Shown in pieces: positions 23,029 to 53,409 of a DNA stretch of 64,000 bases. The DNA comes from a bacterium (GTDB lineage Bacteria; Patescibacteriota; Microgenomatia; Levybacterales; UBA12049): positions 3,515-67,514 of the forward strand of contig JAKALS010000001.1 in the NCBI GenBank assembly GCA_021813145.1, read 5' to 3'. Position numbers and translations under genes: made by a program. The first letter of the stretch is position 1. Each line of letters begins with the position of its first letter. The notes under the pieces are model-generated. The model saw nothing but the letters and a program-made list of their open reading frames with translations, was not told where the DNA came from and made no database searches.

Positions 23029-23916
23029 CTATTGGGGAGTGTAATAATTTAGAGAATATACGTCTAGCTCTGAATTTTTAGGAACAAGTCCTGTGATTGG
23101 AAGATTCCCAGTTTTTGTGTAAAAAGATTTATTATAGTTGAAAGATTCGATATCTCCATTGGGGAATAATACAGTGAGAGTTTTCCCGTCAGAGGAAAGC
23201 TTAATCGAGAAAAAGGCTCTTTGGGAGATTGAATTATTTGAGGGTGTATAAAATGGTACAAAATCGGTAATTTTAGAAGCGAATAAAAATTGTATACCCC
23301 AAGCGTTAAAACTTGGATAGTAGCTTATATAGAATCTGTTCTCACTTGGATCACCTCCAAACATTAAGCCTAAATCATTCTTCCCATTTGAATCCGCTTT
23401 AAGGGCAAAATTCACCTGAACCCCTTTATTTCCGGGAACGATTTGATCACTGTTGGGAACAAATACGTAAGAGACTTCTTTGTCGGTGTTAATAAATTTT
23501 TGAGGATTAGCACATTTAATAAGTTGGTTTAATATTATGTTTTTATCGTTTGAATTAGAATTACAAGCGGCTAAATTCTGAAAATTATTACTAAAATAGA
23601 TTAAGTCATCCTGAGAAGAAGTATTTATTGCCGCGTTTTGCACGTTTTGCTGTTGAGGGAGAAAAGAAAGAGCGGGAATTACCGAAGAAAGTGGGATAAG
23701 ATTAAAATAATTAAAGGTAGTAAGTATCAGGATGCTGAATAGGGCTATGAGAGTTAATTCAAAAATGGAGGTCCTTATAAAATCAAAAATTCTGTAGGCA
23801 GTGGATTTAGGCGCTTCTTCTTGCTGTGGAGCCGCTTCGGTATTTTGGTTTGGAGTACTTACGGGATTGGGTATCCCAAGAGGATTTTGAATACTGGCAG
23901 GCGGTATTACTTCCAT
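23029..23916 (-). CDS. hypothetical membrane-anchored protein
   Basis: Transmembrane segment LTLIALFSILILTTFNYFNL followed by an Asn/Ser-rich extracytoplasmic domain. Confidence 0.4.
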   Translation of the reverse strand: MEVIPPASIQNPLGIPNPVSTPNQNTEAAPQQEEAPKSTAYRIFDFIRTSIFELTLIALFSILILTTFNYFNLIPLSSVIPALSFLPQQQNVQNAAINTSSQDDLIYFSNNFQNLAACNSNSNDKNIILNQLIKCANPQKFINTDKEVSYVFVPNSDQIVPGNKGVQVNFALKADSNGKNDLGLMFGGDPSENRFYISYYPSFNAWGIQFLFASKITDFVPFYTPSNNSISQRAFFSIKLSSDGKTLTVLFPNGDIESFNYNKSFYTKTGNLPITGLVPKNSELDVYSLNYYTPQ

Positions 23917-25942: not shown

Positions 25943-26154
25943 ATTTTTTGAAGTGGGAAGTGAGATGTTCTTGAACTTGAACTAGGTACATGATCCGCAG
26001 CAGTTAGAGCAGGACCAGTTGCAATTGGCAATCCCGCAGCAGGAGGTAGCGCAAGCAATTAATCTTCCCTGGTTTAATTTATTAGGGGTGTAGAAAAGAT
26101 TAATCTTAAATCTCTTTTTTTGAATATCAGGTTTTTGATATTTGTTGTATTTTT

Positions 26155-26670
26155 TCATTGCTGCAAAATAAAAATATTTATGTCCAATGGTGCTTCATTT
26201 GGATCTATGGCGAGGTTCTCATTAAATTGGACCATTATTTTATCTCCGGGTTTTAAATCGCTTACTCCCACCTTTGAAGTTGTTCCATTTTTATCTTGAA
26301 GGTATACTGAGGTAGTTAATAAGTTTTTCCCCGTAATTGGGATGTTTGTCATATCTGCTTTATCGCCCTCCAGCACTATTAGTACTCCTTTATTGTCTTT
26401 TGACGGAATTATATTTTTTACTATTCCGTTAACATTTTGGGTAAAATATACATTTGCATTTTTATAAGACGGCCAGCTTTCAAGCATTTTTAGGGCAATA
26501 GGGTTAATTGCTAGGTTTGCTATGGGTATAGGGGTAGAGGTTGATGTCCCGATCGGGACCTGAGCTATTTTTTTAGGTTCTTCAAAAACAAAAAGAAATA
26601 CAACTTCCGAAAAAGCCGTAATAAGAAGAGCAATTATTATGGCAAGGAACACCTTGTTGAGCCTGGACAC
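26155..26670 (-). CDS. membrane-anchored protein, paralog B of the pair that flanks the RiPP operon
   Basis: MSRLNKVFLAIIIALLITAFSEVVFLFVF is nearly identical in pattern to the N-terminus of 30523-31044. Pro/Thr linker. Confidence 0.5.
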   Translation of the reverse strand: MSRLNKVFLAIIIALLITAFSEVVFLFVFEEPKKIAQVPIGTSTSTPIPIANLAINPIALKMLESWPSYKNANVYFTQNVNGIVKNIIPSKDNKGVLIVLEGDKADMTNIPITGKNLLTTSVYLQDKNGTTSKVGVSDLKPGDKIMVQFNENLAIDPNEAPLDINIFILQQ

Positions 26671-26722
26671 TTTAAATCACCTGATTATAGTAGAACACTT
26701 TGCTTAAGCGATGTCAATAGCA

Positions 26723-27487
26723 CTATTTCAAGGGGTTGCCAAAGGAAAAAGTGCTAATTACTGTTTCCTCAGTCCCGTCTACATCAAGTAATTTGTTTAG
26801 TGTGTCTTCTTTAAAACCCGCTACCTCGCAACACCCAAGATTTAGGGGAATGGAATTTAGGTAAAAATTTTGGCCGAGATGGCCTGTATCGATAAAAACA
26901 TGTCTATAACCGCGTTCTCCGTATTTAACCGTAGTTCTTGCGAAAACTCCGGTAACAATAATTATAAAAGCCGACCCTTTAACCCATTCTTGGTCAAAAT
27001 ATTTTCTGAAGTTTATCGTTTTATACGCGTAAATATGCTCAAGACTGTGAGTTCTTGGGTAATAATGATAAATTCCGTTAGGAAGTTCGGTATTAAAAGA
27101 TAAAAGGTAAATTTCAAGAGGGTATCTTCCTCCTCCCGAAGGATAAAATCTAAGAGGATACAAATTTTCATCAAGATTTTTTATTCCTGCGCTATGGTAC
27201 AGGAGAGAGGAAATTCTTTTAAGGTCAACCTTTTCTTTAGTGAATTCCCTTATGGACTCTCTTTTTAGAAGCGCTTTGGATAAGGCAACTTTAGGAAGTT
27301 CAATTTTGGGAAGCTTAATCTGTTCAAAACGGAAATAGCTTTTAAAATAAACTTTTTTCCACGTTTCGGGAGGTTTTTTTAAATCTTTTCTGAAGCGGAC
27401 ATTTTTTGATGCTTCGTAAAATTTTTGAAAAGGTGAGTTGTTGATGTTTAATAACTCCTCAATCTCGTTGTTATTTTTTATTTTCAT
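26723..27487 (-). CDS. SagB-type (McbC-like) FMN-dependent dehydrogenase of azoline-to-azole RiPP pathways
   Basis: RFYPSGGGRYPLEIY resembles the SagB hallmark PSAGGLYP. GYRHVFIDTGHLGQNFYL and CEVAGF are nitroreductase-fold segments. Confidence 0.65.
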   Translation of the reverse strand: MKIKNNNEIEELLNINNSPFQKFYEASKNVRFRKDLKKPPETWKKVYFKSYFRFEQIKLPKIELPKVALSKALLKRESIREFTKEKVDLKRISSLLYHSAGIKNLDENLYPLRFYPSGGGRYPLEIYLLSFNTELPNGIYHYYPRTHSLEHIYAYKTINFRKYFDQEWVKGSAFIIIVTGVFARTTVKYGERGYRHVFIDTGHLGQNFYLNSIPLNLGCCEVAGFKEDTLNKLLDVDGTEETVISTFSFGNPLK

Positions 27488-28767
27488 ATAAAAGGATGCG
27501 GAACTTGATTAAAATTCCCGGTTTCCACGTTAAAGAAATCCGCCACTTCTTTTATTCTTCCCGTCTTTAATTCTTTCTCTTTCTCATTCAAATAGAGAGG
27601 TTGAAGACGGGGAATAATGATTTTGAATACTTTATAGTCAATATCGGTAAAGTTATCTAAAGTTATGTCGGAATAATATGCATCCAGATTATTTTTCTTT
27701 AAAATTTTTTTCACTGTTTCCAGTTCTTTTACAGGGTTGTCTATGGGGGGTAGGGTTTTATATATCTTCGATTTTTCCGATTTTGTGAGAAAATCTAATT
27801 TGTCTTCCATTTGGGGCGTCATCCATAAAAGTGCCCTTTCAGCAATAGTTGGAACATGTTTTCTTATTTTTACATTTTTCTTTTTGTCAAATAGCTGCAA
27901 TTTCGCAAAGTATCTATTCATGAATGCCTCTTCCATGGCTCCCAGAATCGCAGTTTTTGTATCTAGGCTCGCTTTCATTCCCAGTGAAAGTTGGGGAAGA
28001 TTACCCGTTTCATCTAACAAAACGGTTAAGAATACAGGCACTTGAAGATTATTGGTAATATTAAAGATCAGGGGTTTTAGTCTGTATCTCTTGTAATAAT
28101 CGCCTAGGGATTTTATAGCGCTATCCTTAATGGAACTTATTTTTATCTTGGGGACCCTTATTTTATTAAGATATACCGTCATGAATGCATCTCTTTCTAT
28201 GACCTCATAAATTCCATTAAGAATAACTCTTGTGCTATCAAATCCTCCAGCTGCACCCGTACTTATACTTGAAGTCAGAGAAACTTCATTATCTTTTGGA
28301 AAGTTTAGATATAAAAGCTGGGCAGGAAGAAGTACCTGTTTATTGTCAAATAAATCGTGTCCCTTTATCCATCCGAACTTTGTTTCTTTTATTTTGTCCG
28401 TGTTTATATAAATTTGAGGATTTAAAGCATTAATTCTTTTCTTTTTCAGTTCATTATAGGTAGTATATGTAATCGATTTATAGCTATAGCAGCATTGGTT
28501 AAATCTTTCTGCAGCCTCGCTAAGACACTTCAATAGGGCGGTTTCTTTTGATGCATAAGATAATCCGTTTGCCCCGATTTTATATGCGTTGAGCTTATAT
28601 TCAGATTTCGGAAAAAAGGGATTACTTGAGTTATTAAGCATAACCGAATAGTAATTTAGCTTAGGTTCGTCATAAAAGTGGTTAGAGTTATTTGCTACTT
28701 TCTTAATAATTTTTTTTCCGTTAAGTTCTTTATAGAGTATTTTGATTAATTCCAAGTTATTTTCCAT
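27484..28767 (-). CDS. YcaO-domain cyclodehydratase (azoline-forming type)
   Basis: CLSEAAERFN and GIYEVIERDAF match the YcaO ATP/Mg-binding E-x-x-E-R motifs. SISTGAAGGFD. C-terminal ...VPHPFI is a proline-rich tail like the PxPxP of TOMM YcaOs. Confidence 0.7.
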   Translation of the reverse strand: MENNLELIKILYKELNGKKIIKKVANNSNHFYDEPKLNYYSVMLNNSSNPFFPKSEYKLNAYKIGANGLSYASKETALLKCLSEAAERFNQCCYSYKSITYTTYNELKKKRINALNPQIYINTDKIKETKFGWIKGHDLFDNKQVLLPAQLLYLNFPKDNEVSLTSSISTGAAGGFDSTRVILNGIYEVIERDAFMTVYLNKIRVPKIKISSIKDSAIKSLGDYYKRYRLKPLIFNITNNLQVPVFLTVLLDETGNLPQLSLGMKASLDTKTAILGAMEEAFMNRYFAKLQLFDKKKNVKIRKHVPTIAERALLWMTPQMEDKLDFLTKSEKSKIYKTLPPIDNPVKELETVKKILKKNNLDAYYSDITLDNFTDIDYKVFKIIIPRLQPLYLNEKEKELKTGRIKEVADFFNVETGNFNQVPHPFI

Positions 28768-29483
28768 TATTTTATGTAGTAAAAATTATCAAAATTTTTA
28801 ACAAATTCCATTAAATATTTTATTTGGCTGTTGTAGTTTTTAGAGTCTCCGCTGATTTTTTTCGCAAGGTTTTCGAGGATTTGTTCTTTATCTTCAATTT
28901 TACCTTCGGAAATATTTTTACTTTTTAAGGGGATATAGATATTTCCGATTGGGAATTTCCCGTGGTTTTTTTCAATAAAGGGATTTTCGATAAAAGGTGA
29001 TTGGTAAAAATAATATCTACCGTTTTCCTTTTTTATAATCGATATGTCATCGGTTAAAAATTTATTATGTATATTTTCTATGTCCTTAAAGAAGATTTCT
29101 GCTTTACCGTTTTTTTCTATTGCTATTGATTTTAGGAATAGCGTTTCATGTTTGAGAGATAATTTAAAGAGTATAAAATTAATTACCGTTTGGAATTGAA
29201 GAGGGTTTATGGAGTAGTAGGCGTTCATGCTATTTACTCCGGTTTCTTCAAAAAAACCCAAATAATATTTTTTACCTTTTCCATTGTAAAGTAAGTCCAT
29301 TCTCTTTTTTTCTATAAAATTTATCGTGTAGTCCGGTTTGTTGTTTGGATTTTTTATGATAAATCCTTTAAAAAAATCAATAATTTCATTTTTAATAGTA
29401 TCTCTTACAAAAGGCTTTTCGCTTTTGTTAAAAACTGTTTTAATATTAAATCCGCCGATTTTAAGAGTTAGTGAATTATTCAT
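28767..29483 (-). CDS. HPr-kinase-like family protein lacking a Walker A motif (paralog of 29489-30286)
   Basis: Collinear with 29489-30286 and 48517-49332 (shared NFILF/NFVLL region and C-terminal QIKYLMEF..FDNFY). No GxxGxGKST P-loop. Confidence 0.5.
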   Translation of the reverse strand: MNNSLTLKIGGFNIKTVFNKSEKPFVRDTIKNEIIDFFKGFIIKNPNNKPDYTINFIEKKRMDLLYNGKGKKYYLGFFEETGVNSMNAYYSINPLQFQTVINFILFKLSLKHETLFLKSIAIEKNGKAEIFFKDIENIHNKFLTDDISIIKKENGRYYFYQSPFIENPFIEKNHGKFPIGNIYIPLKSKNISEGKIEDKEQILENLAKKISGDSKNYNSQIKYLMEFVKNFDNFYYIK

Positions 29484-29488
29484 ATTCC

Positions 29489-30286
29489 CTAAAGAGTATT
29501 TTCCAATAATTTTATAAGGCCCTTGCTGCTTTTTGAGAAATAGAGAAAATAAAAGTTATCGAATTCGCTTATAAACTCCATAAGATATTTTATTTGAGTA
29601 GAGTAGTGCTCGTCTCTTGTAAAGATTTGTTTTGATATTAATTTTAGAACATACTCCTTGTTTGTGATTTTTTTGATTTCAAAATGCTTAGATTTTTTTA
29701 AAAAATACACTGAATTTACGGTTGTCCCACTGGAGGTCTTGGTGATCAGGTTTTTTTCCAGGATAGGCGATTGATACAAGTTATATTTGCTTGCCTCTTT
29801 TCTAATTAATGTTATGTCATCGGATAATTTGAAATACCTGTTTTTTAAAAGGTTTGCTGTTGTTGACTTTCCCGCTCCGCTTTTGCCAAGAAAAATATAT
29901 GCCTTGTTATTAATCTTTACTGCGGAAGAATGCAAAAACAAAATTTTATTTTTTTCACTTAATCTTAAAAGTACAAAATTTACCAGCGATTGAAATTGAA
30001 AAATATTTATAAGGTAATGGGTTTTGATTCTATTTTTTTTTATTATTTCGAAAAAAGCCAGATAATATTTCGATTTATTTTTTTCGCTTAATAACTCAAG
30101 TTTTTCTTCTTCCGTTATTTCGATAATAAAGTCGGGGCTTTTAGGTTTATTCTCTATAAAGTTAGCAAAGAAATCTTCAATATTATTTTTTAAAATTTTT
30201 TTTGCAACATTTAATTCAGTCTTTTTAAATATAATCTTTATGGAAAATCCGCCCACTAAAATATTTATAATTTCGGTATTTTTCAT
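29489..30286 (-). CDS. HPr kinase/phosphorylase C-terminal-domain-like putative peptide kinase
   Basis: FLGKSGAGKSTTANLLKNRYFKLSDD matches the HprK P-loop region [25 protein letters not shown]. Confidence 0.55.
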   Translation of the reverse strand: MKNTEIINILVGGFSIKIIFKKTELNVAKKILKNNIEDFFANFIENKPKSPDFIIEITEEEKLELLSEKNKSKYYLAFFEIIKKNRIKTHYLINIFQFQSLVNFVLLRLSEKNKILFLHSSAVKINNKAYIFLGKSGAGKSTTANLLKNRYFKLSDDITLIRKEASKYNLYQSPILEKNLITKTSSGTTVNSVYFLKKSKHFEIKKITNKEYVLKLISKQIFTRDEHYSTQIKYLMEFISEFDNFYFLYFSKSSKGLIKLLENTL

Positions 30287-30335
30287 TTTGGATATTGTAC
30301 CAAATTTATTTTTAATTAAAAGAAGGGGAGAAGGC

Positions 30336-30512
30336 TTATGTTGCTTTTATAGAGCTGCTTCCGCAACCGCAAGAACTCGCTGCATATACTTTTCCTACTG
30401 CTAGTCCATTAGCAGAATCTAGAAAACGTTTATTAAAAAAGAACATAGAAAAACCTTTTACGGTTCTCCTTCTTATCTTAGGCTTAATATAACGATTTTC
30501 AACGGTCTTCAT
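30336..30512 (-). CDS. candidate RiPP precursor peptide, 58 aa (not in the supplied ORF track)
   Basis: Minus-strand ATG at 30512 translates to MKTVENRYIKPKIRRRTVKGFSMFFFNKRFLDSANGLAVGKVYAASSCGCGSSSIKAT, with stop at 30336-30338. The Cys/Ser/Gly-rich C-terminal core is typical of azoline-type substrates. Sits immediately upstream of the HprK-like/YcaO/SagB genes on the same strand. An alternative start is the second Met (36-aa product). Confidence 0.5.
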   Translation of the reverse strand: MKTVENRYIKPKIRRRTVKGFSMFFFNKRFLDSANGLAVGKVYAASSCGCGSSSIKAT

Positions 30513-30522
30513 AATAGCTATT

Positions 30523-31044
30523 TTACTTTAAAAATCTTTGTATTTCTACGCTATCCGGCATTTTGCCATCGGATGTGTGCATATCGTAAGTAGCAGTTAT
30601 TATAATACTATTTCCGGATGAAAGATCACTAAGTTTTATGGGTGTTTGAACTCCGTTTGTCAGATCATAAACTTTTACGCTTTGAGAAAGCGGGGGCATA
30701 ATGTCATATTGAGTAACTTCTTTTCCTTTTACTCCCTCTAGATGAATTGTGAGTACATTATTGTTTGCCTGGGTAGGAAGATCTACCGAAGAGACTATGC
30801 CTGTTACATTTTGAGTAAAGGTGTAAGTTGAGTTGGTCCAATAGTGGGCAGTTTTTAGGTAATCTATCATGTAATTCGTTACGGCAGGGTTTTGAATAGG
30901 GGTAGGTGTAGGAGCTGTTAAGGCCTGAGGGGGAGTGGGAACAGTCTGGGTGGGTTTATAAACAAACAGAAATACCACCTCTGCAAGAGCAGTAAAAAGA
31001 AGAGCTATAATCACAGCTAAAAATATTTTATTCAGCTTTGACAT
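30523..31044 (-). CDS. membrane-anchored protein, paralog A of the pair that flanks the RiPP operon
   Basis: MSKLNKIFLAVIIALLFTALAEVVFLFVY. Pro/Thr linker. 10 nt upstream of the precursor ORF. Confidence 0.5.
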   Translation of the reverse strand: MSKLNKIFLAVIIALLFTALAEVVFLFVYKPTQTVPTPPQALTAPTPTPIQNPAVTNYMIDYLKTAHYWTNSTYTFTQNVTGIVSSVDLPTQANNNVLTIHLEGVKGKEVTQYDIMPPLSQSVKVYDLTNGVQTPIKLSDLSSGNSIIITATYDMHTSDGKMPDSVEIQRFLK

Positions 31045-46843: not shown

Positions 46844-47918
46844 TTTAACAAAAGAAGATTTTAAAGAGATTAAAAAGACATTTGATTCTTCATGGATTTC
46901 CTCCAAAAGCCCCGTTGTTGAGGAGTTTGAAAAAGCGTTTGCCAAAAAGGTAAGCAAAACAAAATACGCGGTCTCCGTAAACAGCGGTACATCGGCTTTA
47001 TTTCTGGCTTTAAAAAGTTTGGGAGTAGGCGAGGGAGACGAGGTAATAATTCCTTCCCTTACAATGATTGCCTCCATTAATGCCGTAACCTTAACGGGGG
47101 CAACACCGGTTCTTGTAGACTGCAGGTCTTTTGAGGATTTTATCTTTGATTTGGAAGAAGTGGAAAAAAAGATAACAGAAAAAACAAAAGTAATAATGCC
47201 CGTACACCTTTATGGATACTCCTGCGAAATGGATAAGCTTGTAAAACTTGCCAAAGAAAAAAAGATTTATATCGTAGAAGACGCGGCAGAAAGCATGGGC
47301 GCAACTTATAAAGCGAAATTTTTGGGAAGTTTTGGAGACGCTTCCTGCTTTTCTTTATACTCCAATAAAATCATTACGACGGGAAACGGGGGAATGGTTG
47401 CCACTAATAACAAAAAGCTTTTTGACCTTTTAAGAAAGATAAGGTTTTTTGATTTTAACGAAGATTCCCATTTTACCCACCATGTCATCGGCTATAACAT
47501 GGTTCTTTCCGGCCTTTCGGCCGCCCTGGGCCTTTCCCAGACCAAAAGGTTTGATAAGATGCTTGCAAAAAGAAGGGAAATCTTCAAAACCTATAAAAAA
47601 TATCTTATAAAAGGGGACAAATATTTTATTCCCGAGCCTTTAAAAAACCAGAACCCCAATTTCTGGTTTCCCGCAGTAATTTTTAAAAGCAAAAAGACAA
47701 AAGAAAAAGTAAGACTGGGGCTTTTAAAAAGGGGGATAGAAACAAGAGTTTTTTTCCGTCCGCTTAATACCCAGCCCGTATATAAAGATTTGTTTAAAGG
47801 TCAAAAATACGAAAAAGCGGAGTTTTTATATTCGAACGGTTTACTTTTGCCTTCTTTTTACGAGCTTAAGGAAAGTCAGATAAAAGAGATAACTTCTTTA
47901 ATAAATTCTTTTGTTTAG
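46806..47918 (+). CDS. DegT/DnrJ/EryC1/StrS-family PLP-dependent sugar aminotransferase
   Basis: SWISSKSPVVEEFEKAFA...AVSVNSGTSALFLAL pattern. A Lys-containing SxxSNK-like block (SLYSNKIITTG). Confidence 0.75.
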   Translation: MRNSYRIPVSKPNLTKEDFKEIKKTFDSSWISSKSPVVEEFEKAFAKKVSKTKYAVSVNSGTSALFLALKSLGVGEGDEVIIPSLTMIASINAVTLTGATPVLVDCRSFEDFIFDLEEVEKKITEKTKVIMPVHLYGYSCEMDKLVKLAKEKKIYIVEDAAESMGATYKAKFLGSFGDASCFSLYSNKIITTGNGGMVATNNKKLFDLLRKIRFFDFNEDSHFTHHVIGYNMVLSGLSAALGLSQTKRFDKMLAKRREIFKTYKKYLIKGDKYFIPEPLKNQNPNFWFPAVIFKSKKTKEKVRLGLLKRGIETRVFFRPLNTQPVYKDLFKGQKYEKAEFLYSNGLLLPSFYELKESQIKEITSLINSFV

Positions 47919-48513
47919 TATGTTTCAAAGACCTGTTGCTCTTATTCTGCTTATATTATCCCTGCCGTTTCTTACTGTATTTTTTATCCTGATAAAAATT
48001 TCCTCAAAAGGCCCGTTTATCTTCAAGCAAAAAAGAACGGGTAAGGGCAAAAAAGTTTTTACCATGTATAAAATAAGGACAATGGTGGACAAGGCTGAAG
48101 GCCTTAAGAAGAAATACAAAAAACTAAACGAAGTTGACGGGCCCGTTTTTAAGATAAAGGACGATCCCAGGTTTACAAAAGTAGGGAAAATCCTTTCCTA
48201 TACGGGCTTGGACGAACTCCCGCAATTTTTTAATGTTTTAAAAGGCGATATGGCATTCGTTGGGCCGAGGCCTTTGCCTGTCGATGAGGCAAAAAAGGTA
48301 CCAAAAAAATACGGGGAAAGATTTAGCGTATTGCCCGGTATAACTTCGCCCTGGGTTGTAGGGGGCCAGCACAGGCTTAAATTCAGGGAGTGGATGGAGC
48401 TGGATGTAGAATATTCGAAAAGAAGATCTAGGGCTTATGACTTACGAATATCATTATTGACGTTTTTGCTGATACTAAAACTGATCGGAAGAAAGTTTTT
48501 GGGAAAGGCATAG
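47911..48513 (+). CDS. bacterial sugar transferase (polyprenyl-phosphate hexose-1-phosphate transferase, WbaP/PglC-like)
   Basis: Single N-terminal transmembrane segment. GPVFKIKDDPRFTKVGKILSYTGLDELPQFFNVLKGDMAFVGPRP is the family hallmark. Confidence 0.8.
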   Translation: MFSMFQRPVALILLILSLPFLTVFFILIKISSKGPFIFKQKRTGKGKKVFTMYKIRTMVDKAEGLKKKYKKLNEVDGPVFKIKDDPRFTKVGKILSYTGLDELPQFFNVLKGDMAFVGPRPLPVDEAKKVPKKYGERFSVLPGITSPWVVGGQHRLKFREWMELDVEYSKRRSRAYDLRISLLTFLLILKLIGRKFLGKA

Positions 48514-48516
48514 CTT

Positions 48517-49332
48517 ATGGAAAAAATATATCTTAATATCTGCGGTTTTAATATTCTTTTAAAAGTTCATTACACCGATCAGCCCTATCATCTTGATAAT
48601 TTTGTCGGAATGGTTAAAAAAAACTATTCGGGTTTTATTAAAAGGGGAAAGGGAAAGGTTGATTTTACGGTTCATGTGGATTACACGGGCTCCGTCCTTT
48701 TAAAAATAGATAAAAAAAAGAACTCCGAAGTGGAGTATTTTGATATGAGGTCCTCCTATCTGGATATCCCCAAAAGGACACTTTTTTTTAATAATCCTCC
48801 CGGGGGATTAGATTTCGAATTTGGGCTTTCCATAATCTTAAATAAATATCTTATTCCCAACAGTAACGGTATGGCTCTTCACGGTTCGGCGGTTTCGTAT
48901 AAAAATAAAGCATTTATTTTTGAAGGAAGAAACGGGGCCGGGAAATCAACAACAGCCCAGATGCTCAACGGTCTTTGCAATATTTCTGCGGACGATTCGA
49001 TAGTTATAAGAAAGATAAAAGGAAGATTTTACCTGTTCCAGACAATAATCCACGATAAAAACTATAATTTTAAAAAGGGATGGCAGTCCTATACGGTAGA
49101 CAGGATCTTTTTCATAAAGAAGGCAAAAGAATACAAAATTCAAAAGATAGAAAACAAAAATATGATCTTAAACAAGATCTTAAAACAGATTTTTACATAT
49201 CCCGATATGATTAAAAGACAGTTTCCTTTACTGGTGGAGTTTGCAAACACAAAAGATTTTTATTATCTTTATGTAAAGAAAGACGAGAAAGAATTCAAAA
49301 AGTTTTTTAAAAAAGAAATTTTAAAGATATGA
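48517..49332 (+). CDS. HPr-kinase-like putative peptide kinase (third paralog)
   Basis: ALHGSAVSYKNKAFIFEGRNGAGKSTTAQMLNGLCNISADD is collinear with the P-loop region of 29489-30286. Confidence 0.55.
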   Translation: MEKIYLNICGFNILLKVHYTDQPYHLDNFVGMVKKNYSGFIKRGKGKVDFTVHVDYTGSVLLKIDKKKNSEVEYFDMRSSYLDIPKRTLFFNNPPGGLDFEFGLSIILNKYLIPNSNGMALHGSAVSYKNKAFIFEGRNGAGKSTTAQMLNGLCNISADDSIVIRKIKGRFYLFQTIIHDKNYNFKKGWQSYTVDRIFFIKKAKEYKIQKIENKNMILNKILKQIFTYPDMIKRQFPLLVEFANTKDFYYLYVKKDEKEFKKFFKKEILKI

Positions 49333-49589
49333 AATACAAAGTAAATAAAGGTTTTATAATTCAAAAAGTAGGGGATAGTTCGACGATTTTTGACGGGGAA
49401 AAATCGGAACTTTATACTTTTAATAAAACTGCTACCTTGATTTTTGAAAAAATAAAGTCAGGCTGGGAAAGCGCAAAAATAATTGAATATCTTTCAAAAT
49501 TTTATTCGATTAAAAAAGAAGAGGCGGAAAAAGATTTTAACGAATTTGTATCCGAACTTATAAAATCAAAGATTCTTTCTAAAAAATAA
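49329..49589 (+). CDS. PqqD-family RiPP recognition element (RRE) protein
   Basis: 86 aa. FNKTATLIFEKIKSGWESAKIIEYLSKFYSIKKEEAEKDFNEFVSELIKSKIL follows the PqqD pattern LNETAAxIxELxDG..t..eIi..L...y.v..e....Dv..fl..L...gli. ATGA-coupled to the upstream kinase-like gene. Confidence 0.65.
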   Translation: MKYKVNKGFIIQKVGDSSTIFDGEKSELYTFNKTATLIFEKIKSGWESAKIIEYLSKFYSIKKEEAEKDFNEFVSELIKSKILSKK

Positions 49590-50801
49590 TTTCTCCCGGA
49601 TTTTCTTTTCAACAACCCAATATACGGAATAGACGACTTCTTTATTTGTAAATACAAAAGCCTTTCTGTAAAAAGGGAGAGGGGAGAGGAAAAAAATTGT
49701 CTTGAACCTTTTTACGCCTCCCGTTACTCTTTCGTCCTGGTTAAGTATGTCTATTCCCCTAATCATTTTATTCATATATCCGTTTTTTTCCGGCTTAATT
49801 TTGTTTAAAACGGAAGAGGGAACGGGAGTCTTGTAATACTTTTTAAGAAGAAAAAGAGCGGGGTAAATAAAATTTTCAAGTTTATATTCTTTTATGATCC
49901 TTAGAGCGTTTTCTCCGATTTTATCTTTTTTAATTACGGTGTTTATAAATTCATAACGGTAAGTTCCTTCAAAATTATGGTGAAAAAGGTGAAGGCAAAG
50001 GTAAACGGCAAGATTATCTTTTGAAAGAACGGGAAAATTCTCTCCGTTTACCGTTATTTGTCTTTTGCTATTTAAAAAGTCCGAAGTAAGAGAGTCTACG
50101 AGTTTTTGCGGATAAAGGCTATTCAACTCGCCAAGCTGTGTCATTAAAAAAACAATTTCGAAATGTACGTCAAAAACCACGGCAAATCCGTTTACGTATT
50201 TTATAAAAGTTATTTCCGATTCCTTGTTTTTTAACTGCTTATGCTTTTTGGAAAGGCTGTCTTCGGTTTGCTCATATCCGAATTCTTTTAAAATCCTTTT
50301 AACTTTATTAAAATCGTTTCTTTTAACAAGTATGTCGCAGTCGGCGTAAATTCTCCTGGGGTGGGTCTTTTCGAAATATAAATGAAGGGGAAGGCCCTTT
50401 AGAAAAACAACGTCTATGCCTTTTTTCTCCAGGATTTTTTTAATTTTTATTATTTCCAAAAAATAGAGGCTGGACTGCATAAGATAGAGACTTTCGGGGC
50501 TGAATATTTCTTTACCCCTTTTAACATTTTCCACAATCCCGAGTATGTTTTTTGCCGAAACTCTTTTATCGGAAGTATGGTTGTTATCGCCTTTGGTTAT
50601 AACATAGTCTTTGCCTTTATAAATTACTCTGTGGGTAAAATAAGTATTGCCGTTTTTTACCGTTATTATGTCGTTGGTTTTAATTCTTTTAAAGGGGATT
50701 TTTTTAAGGTATAAAATATCCCCGTCCAAAAGAAGGGGATACATGCTGTTGCCGAAAGTCTTAAGCCCTCTTTTTAAGAAATCTCTATTATTTATATCCA
50801 T
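49566..50801 (-). CDS. fusion protein: N-terminal S24/S26 (signal-peptidase-I / LexA-like) serine peptidase domain plus C-terminal uncharacterised nucleotidyltransferase (NTP_transf_5-like) domain
   Basis: GNSMYPLLLDGDIL (Ser box), FTHRVIYKGKDYVITKGDNNHTSDKR (Lys/GDN boxes). VVFLKGLPLHLYF...RRIYADCDILV in the C-terminal domain. Confidence 0.5.
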   Translation of the reverse strand: MDINNRDFLKRGLKTFGNSMYPLLLDGDILYLKKIPFKRIKTNDIITVKNGNTYFTHRVIYKGKDYVITKGDNNHTSDKRVSAKNILGIVENVKRGKEIFSPESLYLMQSSLYFLEIIKIKKILEKKGIDVVFLKGLPLHLYFEKTHPRRIYADCDILVKRNDFNKVKRILKEFGYEQTEDSLSKKHKQLKNKESEITFIKYVNGFAVVFDVHFEIVFLMTQLGELNSLYPQKLVDSLTSDFLNSKRQITVNGENFPVLSKDNLAVYLCLHLFHHNFEGTYRYEFINTVIKKDKIGENALRIIKEYKLENFIYPALFLLKKYYKTPVPSSVLNKIKPEKNGYMNKMIRGIDILNQDERVTGGVKRFKTIFFLSPLPFYRKAFVFTNKEVVYSVYWVVEKKIREKLFFRKNL

Positions 50802-50852
50802 TCTTTTGAATATTCTAGCATAAGGATAAACGAAGTAGTAAAATAAGCCGTA

Positions 50853-52673
50853 ATGGCAGGCCTTATTAAAAATGAAAGGATAGGTAAAATCCTTGGGACG
50901 GCAAAAACCTCAAAACGCCTTCTTTTGTTTTTGTGGAAAATTGACAAGCCACTTTTTTTGACAAGTTTTATCGTTGCCGTTGTTCCCGCGTTTATTCCTT
51001 TTGCGAATGCGTACATTTACAAATTGATAATCGATTTTATAGTTTCTTCTTTCGGGAAGCCTAACGTAAGTCTTTCTTTCCTTTTTATTTTAATGGGTTT
51101 TCGTCTCGGCACCTTTGTTTTGCAGGAAGTATTTTTTTCTTTGCAAAGTTATGTAGATCTTTTGGTATGGACAAAACTTCCGGTTGAGCTTTACAGAGTT
51201 GTACTTTTAAAACTTTCGGAACTGAATTTACAGTATTTTGAGGACAGCAACTTTAAAGACATGCTCCAACGCGTAAAAGAAAGCTATACATGGAGGCCTC
51301 TTAATATGATCTCTGCCCTTTTTTATACCATGCAAAGCCTTACAGGCCTTATTCTTGCAGTTTTAATAATTGCCACCCTAAATATTTTCCTCGGACTTTT
51401 TATTCTTTTGATAGCCGTTCCCGTATTCTTTAACCAGACAAAGTATGCAAAAACAATATGGGGTCTATGGGAAGAGCATTCTCCGTACAGAAAAAAATTC
51501 TGGTATATATCCGACCTTATCCAAAACGGACAGAGCGCAAAAGAGATGAAGATTTTCCAGACAGCAAAAAATTTTATAGGCGAACTGGACAAAATACAAA
51601 AAAAGTTTGTGAGCCAAAATTCCAAAGTCGGGAAAAGAAGATTTTTAACGACAATGATTTTTGACATAGGCGGAATAGTTGTTTATTTTGCCATAGAACT
51701 TTTTATAGTCCTTTTAACTGTAGCCGGAAAGATTACCCTCGGAAGCCTTACTTACTTTACTTTTGTAGTGGCAAACTTCCAGCAGGCTGTTAACGGACTA
51801 TTCAGGAATATGTCCCAGGTCTATACACAAACTCTTTTTGTCGAGGATATATTTAGGGTCCTTGACGCAAAGCCCACTATTACAACTTCTAAAAGAGCCG
51901 TAAAGCAGGATATACATAAAGCTCCTTTAATAGAATTTAAAAATGTCAATTTTTCCTATCCCGGATCCAAAAAAGCCGTGCTAAAGAATTTTTCCCTTAA
52001 GATTAATCCCGGAGAAAAAGTGGCATTTGTAGGCGAAAACGGCGCCGGTAAGACAACAATAGTAAAACTTTTGGCACGTTTTTATGATACAGATTCGGGG
52101 GAAATACTTATAAACGGCATCAATATAAAAGATATAGACCTTGTTTCCTGGTACAGGACTTTGGGGGTTATTTTTCAGGATTTTATAAAGTACGAATATA
52201 CCCTGCGGGAAAATATTTATTTCGGAAAGACTTTTGAAAAGGAAGACATAAAAGAAATCAGAAAGGCGGCGGGAAAGTCCGGTGCCGATAAGGTGGCAAA
52301 CAGTCTTGAAAAAGGATACGAACAGATTCTGGGAAAAACATTCGAAGGCGGCGCGGACCTATCGGTGGGAGAGTGGCAAAAAGTGGCACTTGCAAGGGCT
52401 TTTTTCCGTAACGCCCCCGTCCTTATTCTGGACGAGCCTACTTCTGCCATTGATCCGAAGTCCGAAAACGAGATATTCGAAAAAGTGGAGGATTTGGGTA
52501 AAAACAAGACAGTCCTTATTATTTCCCACAGGTTTTCAACAGTTAGAAACGCGGATACGATTTATGTAATAGAAAAAGGAAGAATAAAAGAGGCGGGAAA
52601 CCACGAAAAGTTAATGAAACAAAAAGGGATTTACGAAAAGCTTTTTACGATACAGGCCAAAAGGTACAGATAA
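50853..52673 (+). CDS. ABC transporter, fused permease/ATPase (type I exporter, MsbA-like) with an atypical signature motif
   Basis: Six N-terminal transmembrane segments. Walker A GENGAGKTT. Signature LSVGEWQK instead of LSGGQ. Walker B ILDEPTSAID. Confidence 0.8.
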   Translation: MAGLIKNERIGKILGTAKTSKRLLLFLWKIDKPLFLTSFIVAVVPAFIPFANAYIYKLIIDFIVSSFGKPNVSLSFLFILMGFRLGTFVLQEVFFSLQSYVDLLVWTKLPVELYRVVLLKLSELNLQYFEDSNFKDMLQRVKESYTWRPLNMISALFYTMQSLTGLILAVLIIATLNIFLGLFILLIAVPVFFNQTKYAKTIWGLWEEHSPYRKKFWYISDLIQNGQSAKEMKIFQTAKNFIGELDKIQKKFVSQNSKVGKRRFLTTMIFDIGGIVVYFAIELFIVLLTVAGKITLGSLTYFTFVVANFQQAVNGLFRNMSQVYTQTLFVEDIFRVLDAKPTITTSKRAVKQDIHKAPLIEFKNVNFSYPGSKKAVLKNFSLKINPGEKVAFVGENGAGKTTIVKLLARFYDTDSGEILINGINIKDIDLVSWYRTLGVIFQDFIKYEYTLRENIYFGKTFEKEDIKEIRKAAGKSGADKVANSLEKGYEQILGKTFEGGADLSVGEWQKVALARAFFRNAPVLILDEPTSAIDPKSENEIFEKVEDLGKNKTVLIISHRFSTVRNADTIYVIEKGRIKEAGNHEKLMKQKGIYEKLFTIQAKRYR

Positions 52674-52674
52674 T

Positions 52675-53409
52675 TTATTTTCTTCTTCTTGAGGTTTTTT
52701 TACTGTTGCTCCACAAAAGCGCCAAAAGCAGCATTGCTACAATTATTAAGAAAATCAGCGCAAAGACCTTTTGTGTATATAAAGAAGGTCCCGATGATGT
52801 TGTTTTTGCGGGAACATAGGTTCCCGGAGTGGGAGGAGTAAGCGAAGAATCATTTTTGGCAATAATTTTATTTATTCCGACCATAAAAGCACTGTCCTGA
52901 ATCGGGATTTGAGTGTTTAAAAGAATATGTCCCGTAAAGCTTTTTGAATTCGCAACGTCGATATTTCCCACGGAACCCATGGGATAGAAGTATGTGTTTG
53001 TCCCAACATAGTTGTTGTAAACCTGGGCAGAAATTTGATTAGAAGGTGTAACTACTTTCCCCTTTGAATTTATAAAGACCAGGTAGTACGAGGCAATAGG
53101 AGACTGGTCTTTTGGGAGAATTGTCTTAAGTTTGTCCCAGTTTCCTTCGAACACATATACGTTTACATTATCGTTAAAGCTTTGAGGCGGAACGGTAATT
53201 GTTGTAAACGGAAAAAGATTTATTGTTTTAGGCGAAGTTTCCCCGTACTGTATAAAGCTTGTGGCAACGGGTTTTGTCATGTCAAAAAGAGGATTATTCG
53301 GAATGGTTGCGGGAGGAGTCTGTGCAAAGGAAGTTTTTCCCAAAAGCAGGAAGGCAAGTATGAGAGGTAAAACTACAAGCAATTTTATTTTTTTCATGCT
53401 CTTATTCAA
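52675..53409 (-). CDS. hypothetical secreted protein with a C-terminal transmembrane anchor and basic tail
   Basis: Signal peptide KIKLLVVLPLILAFLLLG. C-terminal VFALIFLIIVAMLLLALLW followed by SNSKKTSRRRK. Confidence 0.45.
   Translation of the reverse strand: MNKSMKKIKLLVVLPLILAFLLLGKTSFAQTPPATIPNNPLFDMTKPVATSFIQYGETSPKTINLFPFTTITVPPQSFNDNVNVYVFEGNWDKLKTILPKDQSPIASYYLVFINSKGKVVTPSNQISAQVYNNYVGTNTYFYPMGSVGNIDVANSKSFTGHILLNTQIPIQDSAFMVGINKIIAKNDSSLTPPTPGTYVPAKTTSSGPSLYTQKVFALIFLIIVAMLLLALLWSNSKKTSRRRK

Follow-up and report, generated by a model that had tools for sequence, protein, structure and literature searches.

The genes at 47911-52673 of the window (the whole 64-kb stretch of DNA analyzed) probably form the maturation and export module of a ribosomal-peptide pathway in a bacterium of the Microgenomates (CPR). 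The pathway resembles that of the linear polyphosphorylated peptides (LPPs), and its substrates would be the two 58-aa precursors of a YcaO operon at 25982-31044. This pathway type is known from Bacillota LPP; here it has a CPR host, a fused peptidase-nucleotidyltransferase, and precursors encoded apart from the maturation genes. The features of the two half-loci are as follows.

47911-48513, plus strand: small polyprenyl-phosphate sugar-phosphate transferase (Bac_transf; PF02397 9e-54), 4 bp upstream of the kinase gene; a probable accessory part
48517-49332, plus strand: HprK-like, ScmC-family P-loop kinase (LppK-like), with a Ser/Thr of the precursor core as its predicted target
49329-49589, plus strand: discrete PqqD-type RiPP recognition element (RRE; lasso B1/LppB-like)
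49566-50501, minus strand: PF14907 nucleotidyltransferase domain and helical tail (LppN/PsmN-like), C-terminal part of a 411-aa fusion
50502-50801, minus strand: signal peptidase I domain (archaeal/ER-type, S26B, SipW/SEC11-like; LppS-like), N-terminal part of the fusion; predicted RRE-dependent leader peptidase
50853-52673, plus strand: MsbA-like ABC exporter without a peptidase domain (LppD-like; MsbA_lipidA 4.6e-87, below cutoff)
25982-26158, minus strand: precursor peptide 2, 58 aa; leader with YQKPDI and ..RLIA, core CATSCCGIANCNWSCSNCCGSCT
26155-26670, minus strand: TM17x paralogue of 171 aa, sharing 4 nt with the start of precursor 2
26723-27487, minus strand: SagB-family FMN peptide dehydrogenase (PF00881 6e-21; TIGR03605 146 bits, above cutoff)
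27484-28767, minus strand: YcaO cyclodehydratase, SagD family (PF02624 4e-46; TIGR03604 2e-58, 198 bits, below the cutoff of 219)
28767-29483, minus strand: third ScmC-family paralogue, without P-loop (family HMM 1.7e-65)
29489-30286, minus strand: second ScmC/HprK-like kinase, P-loop intact
30336-30512, minus strand: precursor peptide 1, 58 aa; leader with YIKPKI and ..KVYA, core ASSCGCGSSSIKAT
30523-31044, minus strand: TM17x, 173-aa membrane-anchored protein with an N-terminal TM segment, directly upstream of precursor 1

The initial annotation had described four ORFs at 48517-52673, and the ORF check and profile searches bore out their coordinates, overlaps, and domain assignments. An ATGA (49329-49332) holds both the stop of the kinase gene and the start of the PqqD gene, and the PqqD gene overlaps the convergent 411-aa gene by 24 nt (49566-49589). 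The 411-aa gene and the ABC gene are divergent, with a 51-bp gap between them (50802-50852). Both half-loci belong to one low-GC island (24-52 kb) and flank a 17-kb block of glycan genes. The maturation and export genes are embedded among polysaccharide genes.

The HprK-like assignment of 48517-49332 is weak by sequence (ScmC model TIGR04249 7.5e-5, HprK_rel_A 8e-3) and was confirmed by a precomputed PF27840 (ScmC) match, by profile matches to PEPCK (1j3b, 3e-6) and HPrK/P (1ko7, 7e-5), and by Foldseek matches of the AF2 model (pLDDT 91) to PEPCK (2e-8) and HPrK/P (1knx, 2e-6). Residues H122, G140, G142, K143, T145, and D159 are invariant. The protein shares 43% identity over 139 aa with the kinase at 29489-30286, and the paralogue at 28767-29483, which lacks a P-loop, is probably non-catalytic.

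The 86-aa PqqD-family protein passed the HMM check (PF05402 2e-8, above cutoff) and is the sole PqqD-type RRE ORF in the window; with the NCBIfam models for lasso PqqD it scores 3e-8 and 4e-7, both below the cutoffs. Its family profile matches TfuB1 (6jx3, 5e-8), TbiB1 (5v1u, 6e-8), PbaB1 (9x90, 5e-6), and LppB (9x8z, 3.5e-5), and reaches just 0.39 with true PqqD (3g2b). Since the profile scores actinobacterial lasso B1 proteins better than LppB, we make no claim of descent from the Bacillota LPP clade.

The 411-aa protein had been annotated as an S24/S26 peptidase fused to a nucleotidyltransferase. The fusion stands, and the peptidase type is refined to archaeal/ER (SipW/SEC11, S26B), a LexA-like S24 identity being rejected. 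The peptidase domain scores above cutoff with archaeal signal peptidase I (TIGR02228, 53 bits against 51.85) and Peptidase_S24 (25.1 bits), and its profile matches SEC11A/C (7p2p/7p2q, 1.5e-4) with GxSMxP, THRV, and KGDNN aligned. Among 30 aligned homologues, H57 and D78 are invariant and S19 and D72 nearly so. Foldseek matches of this domain are LexA, SEC11C, SipA, and SpsB, and a search for a TM segment in the fused peptidase found none. Residues 109-323 match NTP_transf_5 (PF14907, 1e-26), with G136, D154-C155-D156, and D211 invariant in the same alignment. This domain carries a DxD motif and shares an ANT(2'')-like fold with PsmN; its AF2 model (pLDDT 90) matches MenT1 (8an4), LnuA (4fo1), and ANT(2'')-Ia (5cfs/4xje) in Foldseek, and identical structural templates were reported for PsmN (PMC6993621). 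The two domains are fused in every homologue seen (best 120 of 429; 30 aligned).

The precursor-family HMM gave two matches in the window, both in the YcaO operon, 18-23 kb from the module at 48.5-52.7 kb, and none at 48-53 kb, in agreement with the earlier statement that no precursor lies in cis. The earlier picture of the operon also held for the shared HprK-like family and the missing RRE; the precursors are two rather than one. Across 40 distinct sequences of this Y-x-K-P-x-[ILV] leader family, Y and P are invariant and the C-termini hypervariable. The leader continues with KK[IV]K[LIV]N[FL]F and a long spacer to a Phi-Phi-Ala motif at the leader-core boundary, which is present in 36 of the 40 and nearly always single. 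The precursors of the operon are Cys/Ser-rich, with Cys-rich cores. TM17x proteins, for which Pfam and PDB searches gave no match, occur in 43 loci; in nearly all of them the gene lies immediately upstream of that for the precursor, in many cases with a 4-nt overlap.

Linkage was counted in 80 related loci of the fused enzyme, up to 10 kb on each side, which have diverged deeply (36-63% identity) and still keep the association. PqqD is found beside the fused enzyme in 61, ScmC/HprK-like proteins in 48, Bac_transf in 34, the precursor family in 32, and YcaO with SagB in 17; for the 30 loci with at least 8 kb on both sides, the counts are 25, 25, 13, 17, and 11, respectively. Most of the related loci show no YcaO within up to 10 kb on each side, which gives it the look of an add-on, and there is no correlation between YcaO presence and core type (Fisher p = 1). 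The kinase/RRE/peptidase-nucleotidyltransferase module, rather than YcaO, is the core of the system.

According to the initial annotation, the YcaO operon 18 kb upstream may draw in trans on this module for its RRE, leader peptidase, and exporter, and comparative genomics supports this. The only two precursor-family members of the window lie in the YcaO operon, and both halves are contiguous in four compact clusters that contain every part (L022, L084, L018, and L055). The order in L022 is YcaO>SagB>precursor>fusion><PqqD<ScmC<ABC, and the other three are similar. Alternatively, there may be two independent pathways, with an LPP-like system at 48.5-52.7 kb whose precursor lies outside the window, and the YcaO operon as a separate LAP/TOMM cluster whose own ScmC-like proteins handle its substrate. 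This would fit the operon's own pair of ScmC-family paralogues, one with and one without a P-loop, and the many loci where fused enzyme, PqqD, and precursor are not accompanied by YcaO within 10 kb. We consider it unlikely, as no RRE, leader peptidase, or exporter was found in the YcaO operon, its peptides share the leader family that in relatives normally precedes the fused enzyme immediately (at least 12 loci), and in the four compact clusters the same precursor is flanked by YcaO/SagB and by fused enzyme/PqqD.

The exporter assignment and its unusual LSVGEWQ signature, both noted earlier, were confirmed. The signature ([LI]S[VLF]G[EQ]WQK) is kept in 11 of 11 ABC transporters linked to the system and is therefore a trait of the family, not a sign of decay. 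Just 8 of the 80 related loci have the exporter, in four gene orders, and its best matches are flippases of lipids or lipid-linked sugars (MsbA, PglK). These matches would also suit a role in the cell envelope, in which a phosphorylated, nucleotidyltransferase-activated peptide is joined by Bac_transf to polyprenyl phosphate or glycan and flipped by the MsbA-like protein, giving a surface-bound peptide-phospho-glycan conjugate instead of a secreted natural product. Consistent with such a role, Bac_transf adjoins the fused enzyme or PqqD in 34 of the 80 loci, in five gene orders and often with overlapping reading frames, the glycan block shares the island with both half-loci, Bacilli LPP clusters also lie within capsule loci, and LppN appears to need a further partner. 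However, Bac_transf is absent from more than half of the long-flank loci (13 of 30 have it), its association could reflect just a shared sugar-nucleotide supply or co-regulation, and we know of no phosphosugar transferase with a peptide substrate; we regard this role as rather improbable. The weak individual scores of the kinase and peptidase domain might point to unrelated genes that lie together by chance: a signal peptidase with a housekeeping role, a PqqD-like ORF that strayed there, some P-loop protein, and a multidrug exporter. This reading is refuted by the universal fusion of an anchorless peptidase to the nucleotidyltransferase among the homologues seen and by the linkage conserved in 80 diverged loci.

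For the preferred LPP-like pathway acting on the YcaO-operon precursors, we infer every chemical step, the step order, the cleavage site, and the product chemistry. The PqqD protein (lasso B1/LppB-type RRE) would bind Y-x-K-P-x-[ILV] near the precursor N-terminus, and core Ser/Thr would be phosphorylated by the ScmC/HprK-like kinase or kinases. The SagD-family YcaO and SagB may then turn core Cys/Ser/Thr into azol(in)es. The nucleotidyltransferase domain may elaborate the phosphate, as a homologue of PsmN, without which no hexose is added to phosphoserine, and neighboring sugar genes, including the Bac_transf gene, may supply its substrates. The fused soluble SipW/SEC11-like peptidase, whose Ser-His-Asp residues are intact, would remove the leader, most likely just after the hydrophobic-hydrophobic-Ala motif, and the MsbA-like transporter would export the product.

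A neighborhood of HprK-related, PqqD-like, and nucleotidyltransferase proteins, mentioned in the initial annotation, is indeed published, as paeninodin-type lasso and LPP clusters (PMC8498205, PMC13381572). The LPP clusters of Bacillota (LppA/K/B/S/D/N; Popov et al., Nat Commun 2026, PMC13381572) share with the present system a signal peptidase I of archaeal type that acts as leader protease, a discrete lasso-type RRE, a kinase resembling HprK, an uncharacterised NTP transferase, an MsbA-like exporter, an N-terminal YxxPx[V/L/I] precursor motif with hypervariable C-termini, a polysaccharide-gene setting, and the lack of any macrolactam cyclase. In that work, the kinase polyphosphorylates core Ser3, the peptidase cleaves solely with the RRE present, LppN had no activity in the heterologous system, and LPPs were called restricted to Bacillota (PMC13381572). 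In contrast, the present host is a CPR/Microgenomates bacterium, peptidase and NTP transferase are a single polypeptide, and the precursor genes stand at a distance of 18-23 kb. The RRE resembles LppB no more closely than it does actinobacterial lasso B1 proteins, most relatives lack the exporter, and the system recurs with YcaO/SagB, translationally coupled TM17x, and Bac_transf. The precursors here lack the extended leader consensus of LPPs, VLxHQxIxFETxxS, and the distance from Y to the boundary is ~32 residues instead of 16, which makes the cleavage register uncertain.

Paeninodin/pseudomycoidin-type lasso clusters (PadeK/PsmK kinase, PsmN nucleotidyltransferase, B1 RRE, D exporter) likewise contain an HprK-like kinase, PF14907, an ABC exporter, and a PqqD-type B1 RRE that reads [Y/W]xxPxL, and some of them also fuse the nucleotidyltransferase to a leader protease (PMC8498205, PMC6993621). 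That protease is a cysteine B2 enzyme, whereas the one here is serine S26B, and the present system has neither an Asn-synthetase-like cyclase nor a transglutaminase-like B2 protease.

The SynChlorMet (SCM)/HPr-rel-A systems (NCBIfam TIGR04248/04249/04352) combine a ScmC/HprK-related protein with a small PqqD-like protein, as here, but their radical SAM/SPASM maturases are absent, and scores to their equivalog models are all far below the cutoffs. With LAP/TOMM clusters of the SagB-SagC-SagD type, the YcaO operon shares a SagD-family YcaO, a SagB dehydrogenase, and Cys/Ser-rich precursors. It differs from them in that, instead of an RRE-bearing SagC/E1-like or Ocin-ThiF-like partner, ScmC/HprK-like proteins stand beside YcaO and the sole RRE is the distant discrete PqqD protein.

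The locus at 47911-52673 is probably a maturation and export module like that of the linear polyphosphorylated peptides (LPPs), judging from the sequence comparisons described here, and probably acts on two precursor peptides encoded in a YcaO operon elsewhere in the window. It contains the following genes.

47911-48513 (+), Bac_transf, a small PglC-like phosphosugar transferase
48517-49332 (+), HprK-like/ScmC-family protein, 271 aa
49329-49589 (+), PqqD-family protein, 86 aa
49566-50801 (-), fused peptidase-nucleotidyltransferase, 411 aa
50853-52673 (+), MsbA-like ABC exporter, 606 aa

The last four genes and their arrangement are as described in the initial annotation. The kinase and PqqD reading frames overlap in ATGA, the PqqD and 411-aa genes converge with a 24-nt overlap, and the 411-aa and ABC genes diverge across 51 bp. 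Scanning 46-54 kb for promoters and terminators gave results at or near the shuffle expectation, which were uninformative on operon structure. The proposed domain assignments also hold: the 86-aa protein matches PF05402 above the cutoff (Pfam, E 2e-8), the 411-aa protein matches Peptidase_S24 (residues 13-90) and NTP_transf_5 (PF14907, residues 109-323, E 1e-26), and the exporter has a Pfam match and is MsbA-like by NCBIfam. The ABC signature of the exporter is LSVGEWQ (window 52326-52346). The variant [LI]S[VLF]G[EQ]WQK replaces LSGGQ also in 10 related transporters and is kept in both subgroups of the exporters linked to this system.

LPPs were defined in 2026 by Popov et al. (Nat Commun, PMC13381572), who called them restricted to Bacillota. 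The core genes encode a SipW-like signal peptidase (LppS), a discrete RiPP recognition element (RRE, LppB), an HprK-like kinase (LppK), an uncharacterised NTP transferase (LppN) and an MsbA-like exporter (LppD). YxxPxVLxHQxIxFETxxS is found in the precursors, and the clusters lie within capsule loci (PMC13381572). LppK polyphosphorylates core Ser3, cleavage by LppS (Ser/His/Asp) requires LppB, and LppN was inactive, so that a partner outside the core cluster is suspected (PMC13381572). YcaO, Patescibacteria and peptidase-transferase fusions are absent from the main text of that paper. Paeninodin-type lasso clusters contain an HprK-like kinase that phosphorylates a precursor Ser and a nucleotidyltransferase N, which is fused to the B2 protease in some of them (PMC8498205). 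Addition of one or two hexoses to phosphoserine depends on PsmN, which must have an intact DxD motif and can be modelled on ANT(2'') (PMC6993621). The window system shares the five LPP gene types, as follows; its precursors carry the core of the leader motif but not the extended consensus, and they lie outside the locus.

The HprK-like assignment of 48517-49332, proposed in the initial annotation, has a weak single-sequence match and is upheld by four other lines of evidence. NCBIfam gave ScmC at 7.5e-5 and HprK_rel_A at 8e-3. There is a precomputed match to PF27840 (ScmC, a newer Pfam family); across the H..GxxGxGKS..DD stretch the family profile matches PEP carboxykinase (3e-6) and HPr kinase/phosphatase (7e-5), and the H..GxxGxGKS/T..DD motifs are invariant in the family; the structure model is confident (pLDDT 91); and its top fold matches are PEPCK (2e-8) and HPrK/P (2e-6). 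The profile and fold searches were needed because a single-sequence PDB search returned only the P-loops of ABC proteins. The LPP-type HprK-like gene is thus represented in the locus, with a predicted kinase activity.

The best NCBIfam matches of the 86-aa protein are lasso-type PqqD chaperone models. A profile of its homologues has exactly four strong matches among solved structures: TfuB1 (5e-8), TbiB1 (6e-8), PbaB1 (9x90, 5e-6) and LppB (9x8z, 3.5e-5), whereas genuine PqqD reaches only 0.39 against the same profile. LppB is the sole LPP RRE sequence compared, and it scores below the actinobacterial B1 proteins. All four are lasso or LPP recognition elements that bind a [Y/W]xxPx[L/V/I] leader motif (PMC10368454, PMC13381572). 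The 86-aa protein, which is the only RRE in the window, is therefore similar to elements that read this motif, and RRE type and leader motif fit each other. These matches point to a discrete RRE of the lasso/LPP type.

The 411-aa protein has 429 homologues, with 86 matches among species-representative genomes. The best 120 of the 429 are all 388-465 aa long and 46-67% identical, and their source labels read 'signal peptidase I' or Roizmanbacteria, Microgenomates or Patescibacteria. Its peptidase region scores 53 bits with TIGR02228 (archaeal-type signal peptidase I, NCBIfam), above the cutoff, and the family profile matches human SEC11A and SEC11C with the three boxes characteristic of ER/archaeal signal peptidases aligned. 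Both sets of active-site residues are retained in an alignment of 30 homologues: the boxes GxSMxP with Ser19, THRV with His57 and KGDNN..D with Asp72/Asp78 are conserved, and G136, D154-C-D156 and D211 of the nucleotidyltransferase part are invariant. In the AlphaFold model (pLDDT 90), Foldseek relates the N-terminal part to LexA, SEC11C, SipA and SpsB, and the C-terminal part to the small-substrate nucleotidyltransferases MenT1, LnuA and ANT(2'')-Ia (5cfs/4xje). We looked for a hydrophobic anchor in the 411-aa protein and found none, unlike in real signal peptidases; we therefore take it for a soluble serine peptidase, probably located in the cytoplasm, with a nucleotidyltransferase attached. 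An archaeal-type (SipW-like) signal peptidase I with a Ser/His/Asp triad is thus present as a domain of the fusion. The PF14907 match, the invariant DxD and the ANT(2'')-like fold, which PsmN is reported to have too, mark the other domain as an NTP transferase of the PsmN/LppN type; we infer its equivalence to LppN, since PMC13381572 gives no Pfam number. The fusion itself argues for one RRE-bound substrate shared by both activities. A search with the peptidase domain only gave 3 matches, and the sole stand-alone one (P0157, in L085) lies in an unrelated context. Two related loci (L016 and L080) have two matches each to the fused enzyme.

The partner operon lies on the minus strand at 25982-31044, in the order < precursor < TM17x < SagB < YcaO < ScmC* < ScmC < precursor < TM17x, where TM17x is a family of membrane-anchored proteins and ScmC* is a ScmC paralogue lacking the P-loop. 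Its precursor and TM17x genes are as follows.

25982-26158 (-), precursor peptide, 58 aa
26155-26670 (-), TM17x protein
30336-30512 (-), precursor peptide, 58 aa
30523-31044 (-), TM17x protein

We seeded a precursor search with the two Cys-rich 58-aa ORFs and iterated the HMM over all small ORFs; the search settled on 42 ORFs, of which 40 are distinct. The only window matches of this model are 30336-30512 and 25982-26158, 18-23 kb from the locus, which confirms that the locus has no precursor in cis. Shortly after a basic N-terminus, all precursors contain Y-x-K-P-x-[ILVFM] (Y and P in 40/40, K in 35/40). The YxxPx[V/L/I] motif is found in both window precursors and throughout the family; the VLxHQxIxFETxxS part is absent. 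A KK[IV]K[LIV]N[FL]F block follows, and then a spacer with an often acidic end. A hydrophobic-hydrophobic-Ala (Phi-Phi-Ala) tripeptide occurs in 36/40 precursors, singly in nearly all, and the sequence immediately after it is hypervariable. Cleavage directly after N[FL]F, which would place the Tyr at about -16 as in LPPs, appears less likely than cleavage at Phi-Phi-Ala, because it would leave a bulky residue at -1 and because conservation runs on to the tripeptide. Three kinds of core occur: Cys/Ser/Gly-rich ones of 13-50 aa, very short ones (ATWV, APTSYL, TLIR, ARTC) and, in one locus, long GQGGYY repeats. In that locus (L034), two precursors with the same leader have cores of ~90 aa of these repeats, ~8.4 kb upstream of the fused enzyme, so the family includes both tiny cores and long repetitive ones. 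Core type (long and Cys-rich with YcaO, short without) showed no relation to the presence of YcaO (Fisher p = 1).

The comparison covered 79 loci from species-representative genomes and a few more from metagenomes, and the window proteins were used to search all of them. The hosts are nearly all Microgenomates (Levy-, Roizman-, Gottesman-, Beckwith- and Woesebacteria). Many metagenome-assembled genomes titled 'uncultured Gammaproteobacteria' carry the Microgenomates-type cluster (L008, L012, L015, L016 and others) and look taxonomically mislabelled.

Genes linked to the fused enzyme, counted in 80 non-redundant loci and in the 30 loci with at least 8 kb on both sides of the fused enzyme (long flanks)
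PqqD homologue: 61/80 (within 3 kb); 25/30
ScmC/HprK-like gene: 48/80; 25/30
Bac_transf: 34/80; 13/30
Precursor family: 32/80; 17/30
YcaO and SagB-type dehydrogenase: 17/80; 11/30
Window-type ABC exporter: 8/80; 3/30

The link to YcaO suspected in the initial annotation is thus recurrent, and 11/30 is a lower bound, since YcaO was scored within 10 kb only and that of the window is 18 kb off. The MsbA-like exporter of LPP clusters has its counterpart in the window and, as the window type, in only 8 of the 80 loci. In the most frequent arrangement, [TM17x > precursor > fused enzyme >] is convergent with [< PqqD < ScmC < Bac_transf], and in at least 12 loci the gene of the fused enzyme is immediately preceded by a precursor gene of the same strand. 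One related locus, L022, has the order YcaO > SagB > precursor > fused enzyme > < PqqD < ScmC < ABC, and L084, L018 (the same place as L003) and L055 resemble it. L022 unites the content of both window loci in one compact cluster, which suggests that the window holds a split version. Beyond the YcaO operon come ~15 kb of glycan genes and then GT2 > DegT > Bac_transf > ScmC > PqqD > < fused enzyme, ABC >. Both half-loci and the intervening glycan genes lie in one low-GC stretch at 24-52 kb (GC 0.28-0.36, with one 2-kb block at 0.40; flanks 0.37-0.47). The glycan genes of this island are Wzy_C (two), a carbamoyltransferase, PMT_2 (two), GDSL, DUF6056, GH10, GT4 (two), GT2 and DegT.

The partner operon, outside the coordinates of the locus, contains the YcaO and SagB pair of azole-forming TOMM/LAP systems. 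Its YcaO scores 198 bits with TIGR03604 (cutoff 219), and its SagB dehydrogenase scores 146 bits with TIGR03605, above the cutoff. No E1-like/SagC or RRE-bearing Ocin-ThiF-like domain was found in the operon; the place of the E1-like partner is taken by two ScmC-family proteins (238 and 265 aa) adjoining YcaO, which raises the possibility that such proteins, together with the discrete RRE, bring the substrate to YcaO. This YcaO/SagB hybrid suggests that a lasso-type RRE, perhaps with ScmC-like proteins, can serve an azole-forming YcaO. The third ScmC-family paralogue of the window, immediately beside YcaO (28767-29483, -) has no P-loop, which is missing in 21/60 ScmC-family members of the related loci; it may be a non-catalytic YcaO partner in place of an E1-like protein. 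Our literature search found nothing on YcaO and HPr kinase together, and neither RRE-Finder nor a structure-based RRE paper of 2025 refers to kinases, nucleotidyltransferases or signal peptidases.

TM17x proteins (~170-200 aa) occur in 43 loci (for example L026:8473-8985, L084:9194-9700 and L051:9203-9799), usually directly upstream of a precursor gene and often translationally coupled to it by a 4-nt overlap. A Glu within their N-terminal TM helix is near-invariant, a DLKxGD motif lies in the C-terminal part, and the family profile has no credible match in Pfam or PDB. TM17x might act in immunity or export, or as a scaffold. Several TM17x-precursor cassettes per locus were seen in L023, L029, L036, L044 and L054. 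Five different gene orders link the Bac_transf family to the fused enzyme or PqqD, and its reading frames often overlap their neighbours in related loci; it is a candidate for the missing partner of LppN/PsmN-type nucleotidyltransferases.

An alternative, which we consider improbable, is that the conserved core (precursor, TM17x, peptidase-nucleotidyltransferase, PqqD, ScmC kinase and small phosphosugar transferase) builds a peptide-phosphate-sugar or peptide-phosphate-polyprenyl conjugate rather than a free secreted peptide. The kinase would form phosphoserine, the nucleotidyltransferase would convert it to an NMP-phospho ester, as for sugar-1-phosphates, Bac_transf would move the phosphopeptide to a lipid carrier or a sugar phosphate onto the carrier, and an MsbA/PglK-like flippase or TM17x would move the product outward. 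If so, tiny CPR cells would bear ribosomally encoded, azole-decorated peptides on their surface glycan, and the missing partner of LppN/PsmN would be identified. The locus is not a lasso cluster, since the Asn-synthetase-like cyclase (C) and the transglutaminase-like B2 are absent from all 38 window ORFs scanned (Pfam). The SynChlorMet cassette combines the radical SAM/SPASM maturases ScmE/ScmF with ScmC and ScmD. This cassette and HPr-rel-A membership are rejected, as the scanned ORFs include no radical SAM protein and the scores are far below the cutoffs (ScmC 22 against 125 bits, ScmD 18.5 against 100 bits).

The LPP-like module that we favor differs from the Bacillota systems in its Microgenomates (CPR) host, the fusion of peptidase and transferase, the split of its genes in the genome, the recurrent YcaO/SagB coupling, the conserved TM17x, the Bac_transf linkage, and a longer leader with a Phi-Phi-Ala boundary. 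Microgenomates thus appear to hold a large, deeply diverged sister set to the Bacillota LPPs, as the number of fused-enzyme homologues indicates. The set offers natural experiments, with Bac_transf and TM17x as concrete 'missing partner' candidates, and a likely function can be assigned to a very common CPR gene set annotated merely as 'signal peptidase I' or 'hypothetical'.

Elsewhere in the window, a Pfam search gave no match for four minus-strand ORFs (2921-5089, 5133-7181, 21203-22987 and 23029-23916), which encode 295-722 aa, three of them at least 594 aa. Next to the exporter gene, 52675-53409 (-) encodes a 244-aa protein for which no family match was found; it has a signal peptide and, at its C-terminus, a TM helix plus an RRRK tail. 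In L001, a 236-aa protein in a similar position has a precomputed match to Cohesin (PF00963) and was missed by tblastn with the 244-aa protein. The 244-aa protein probably sits at the surface and has no part in the pathway.
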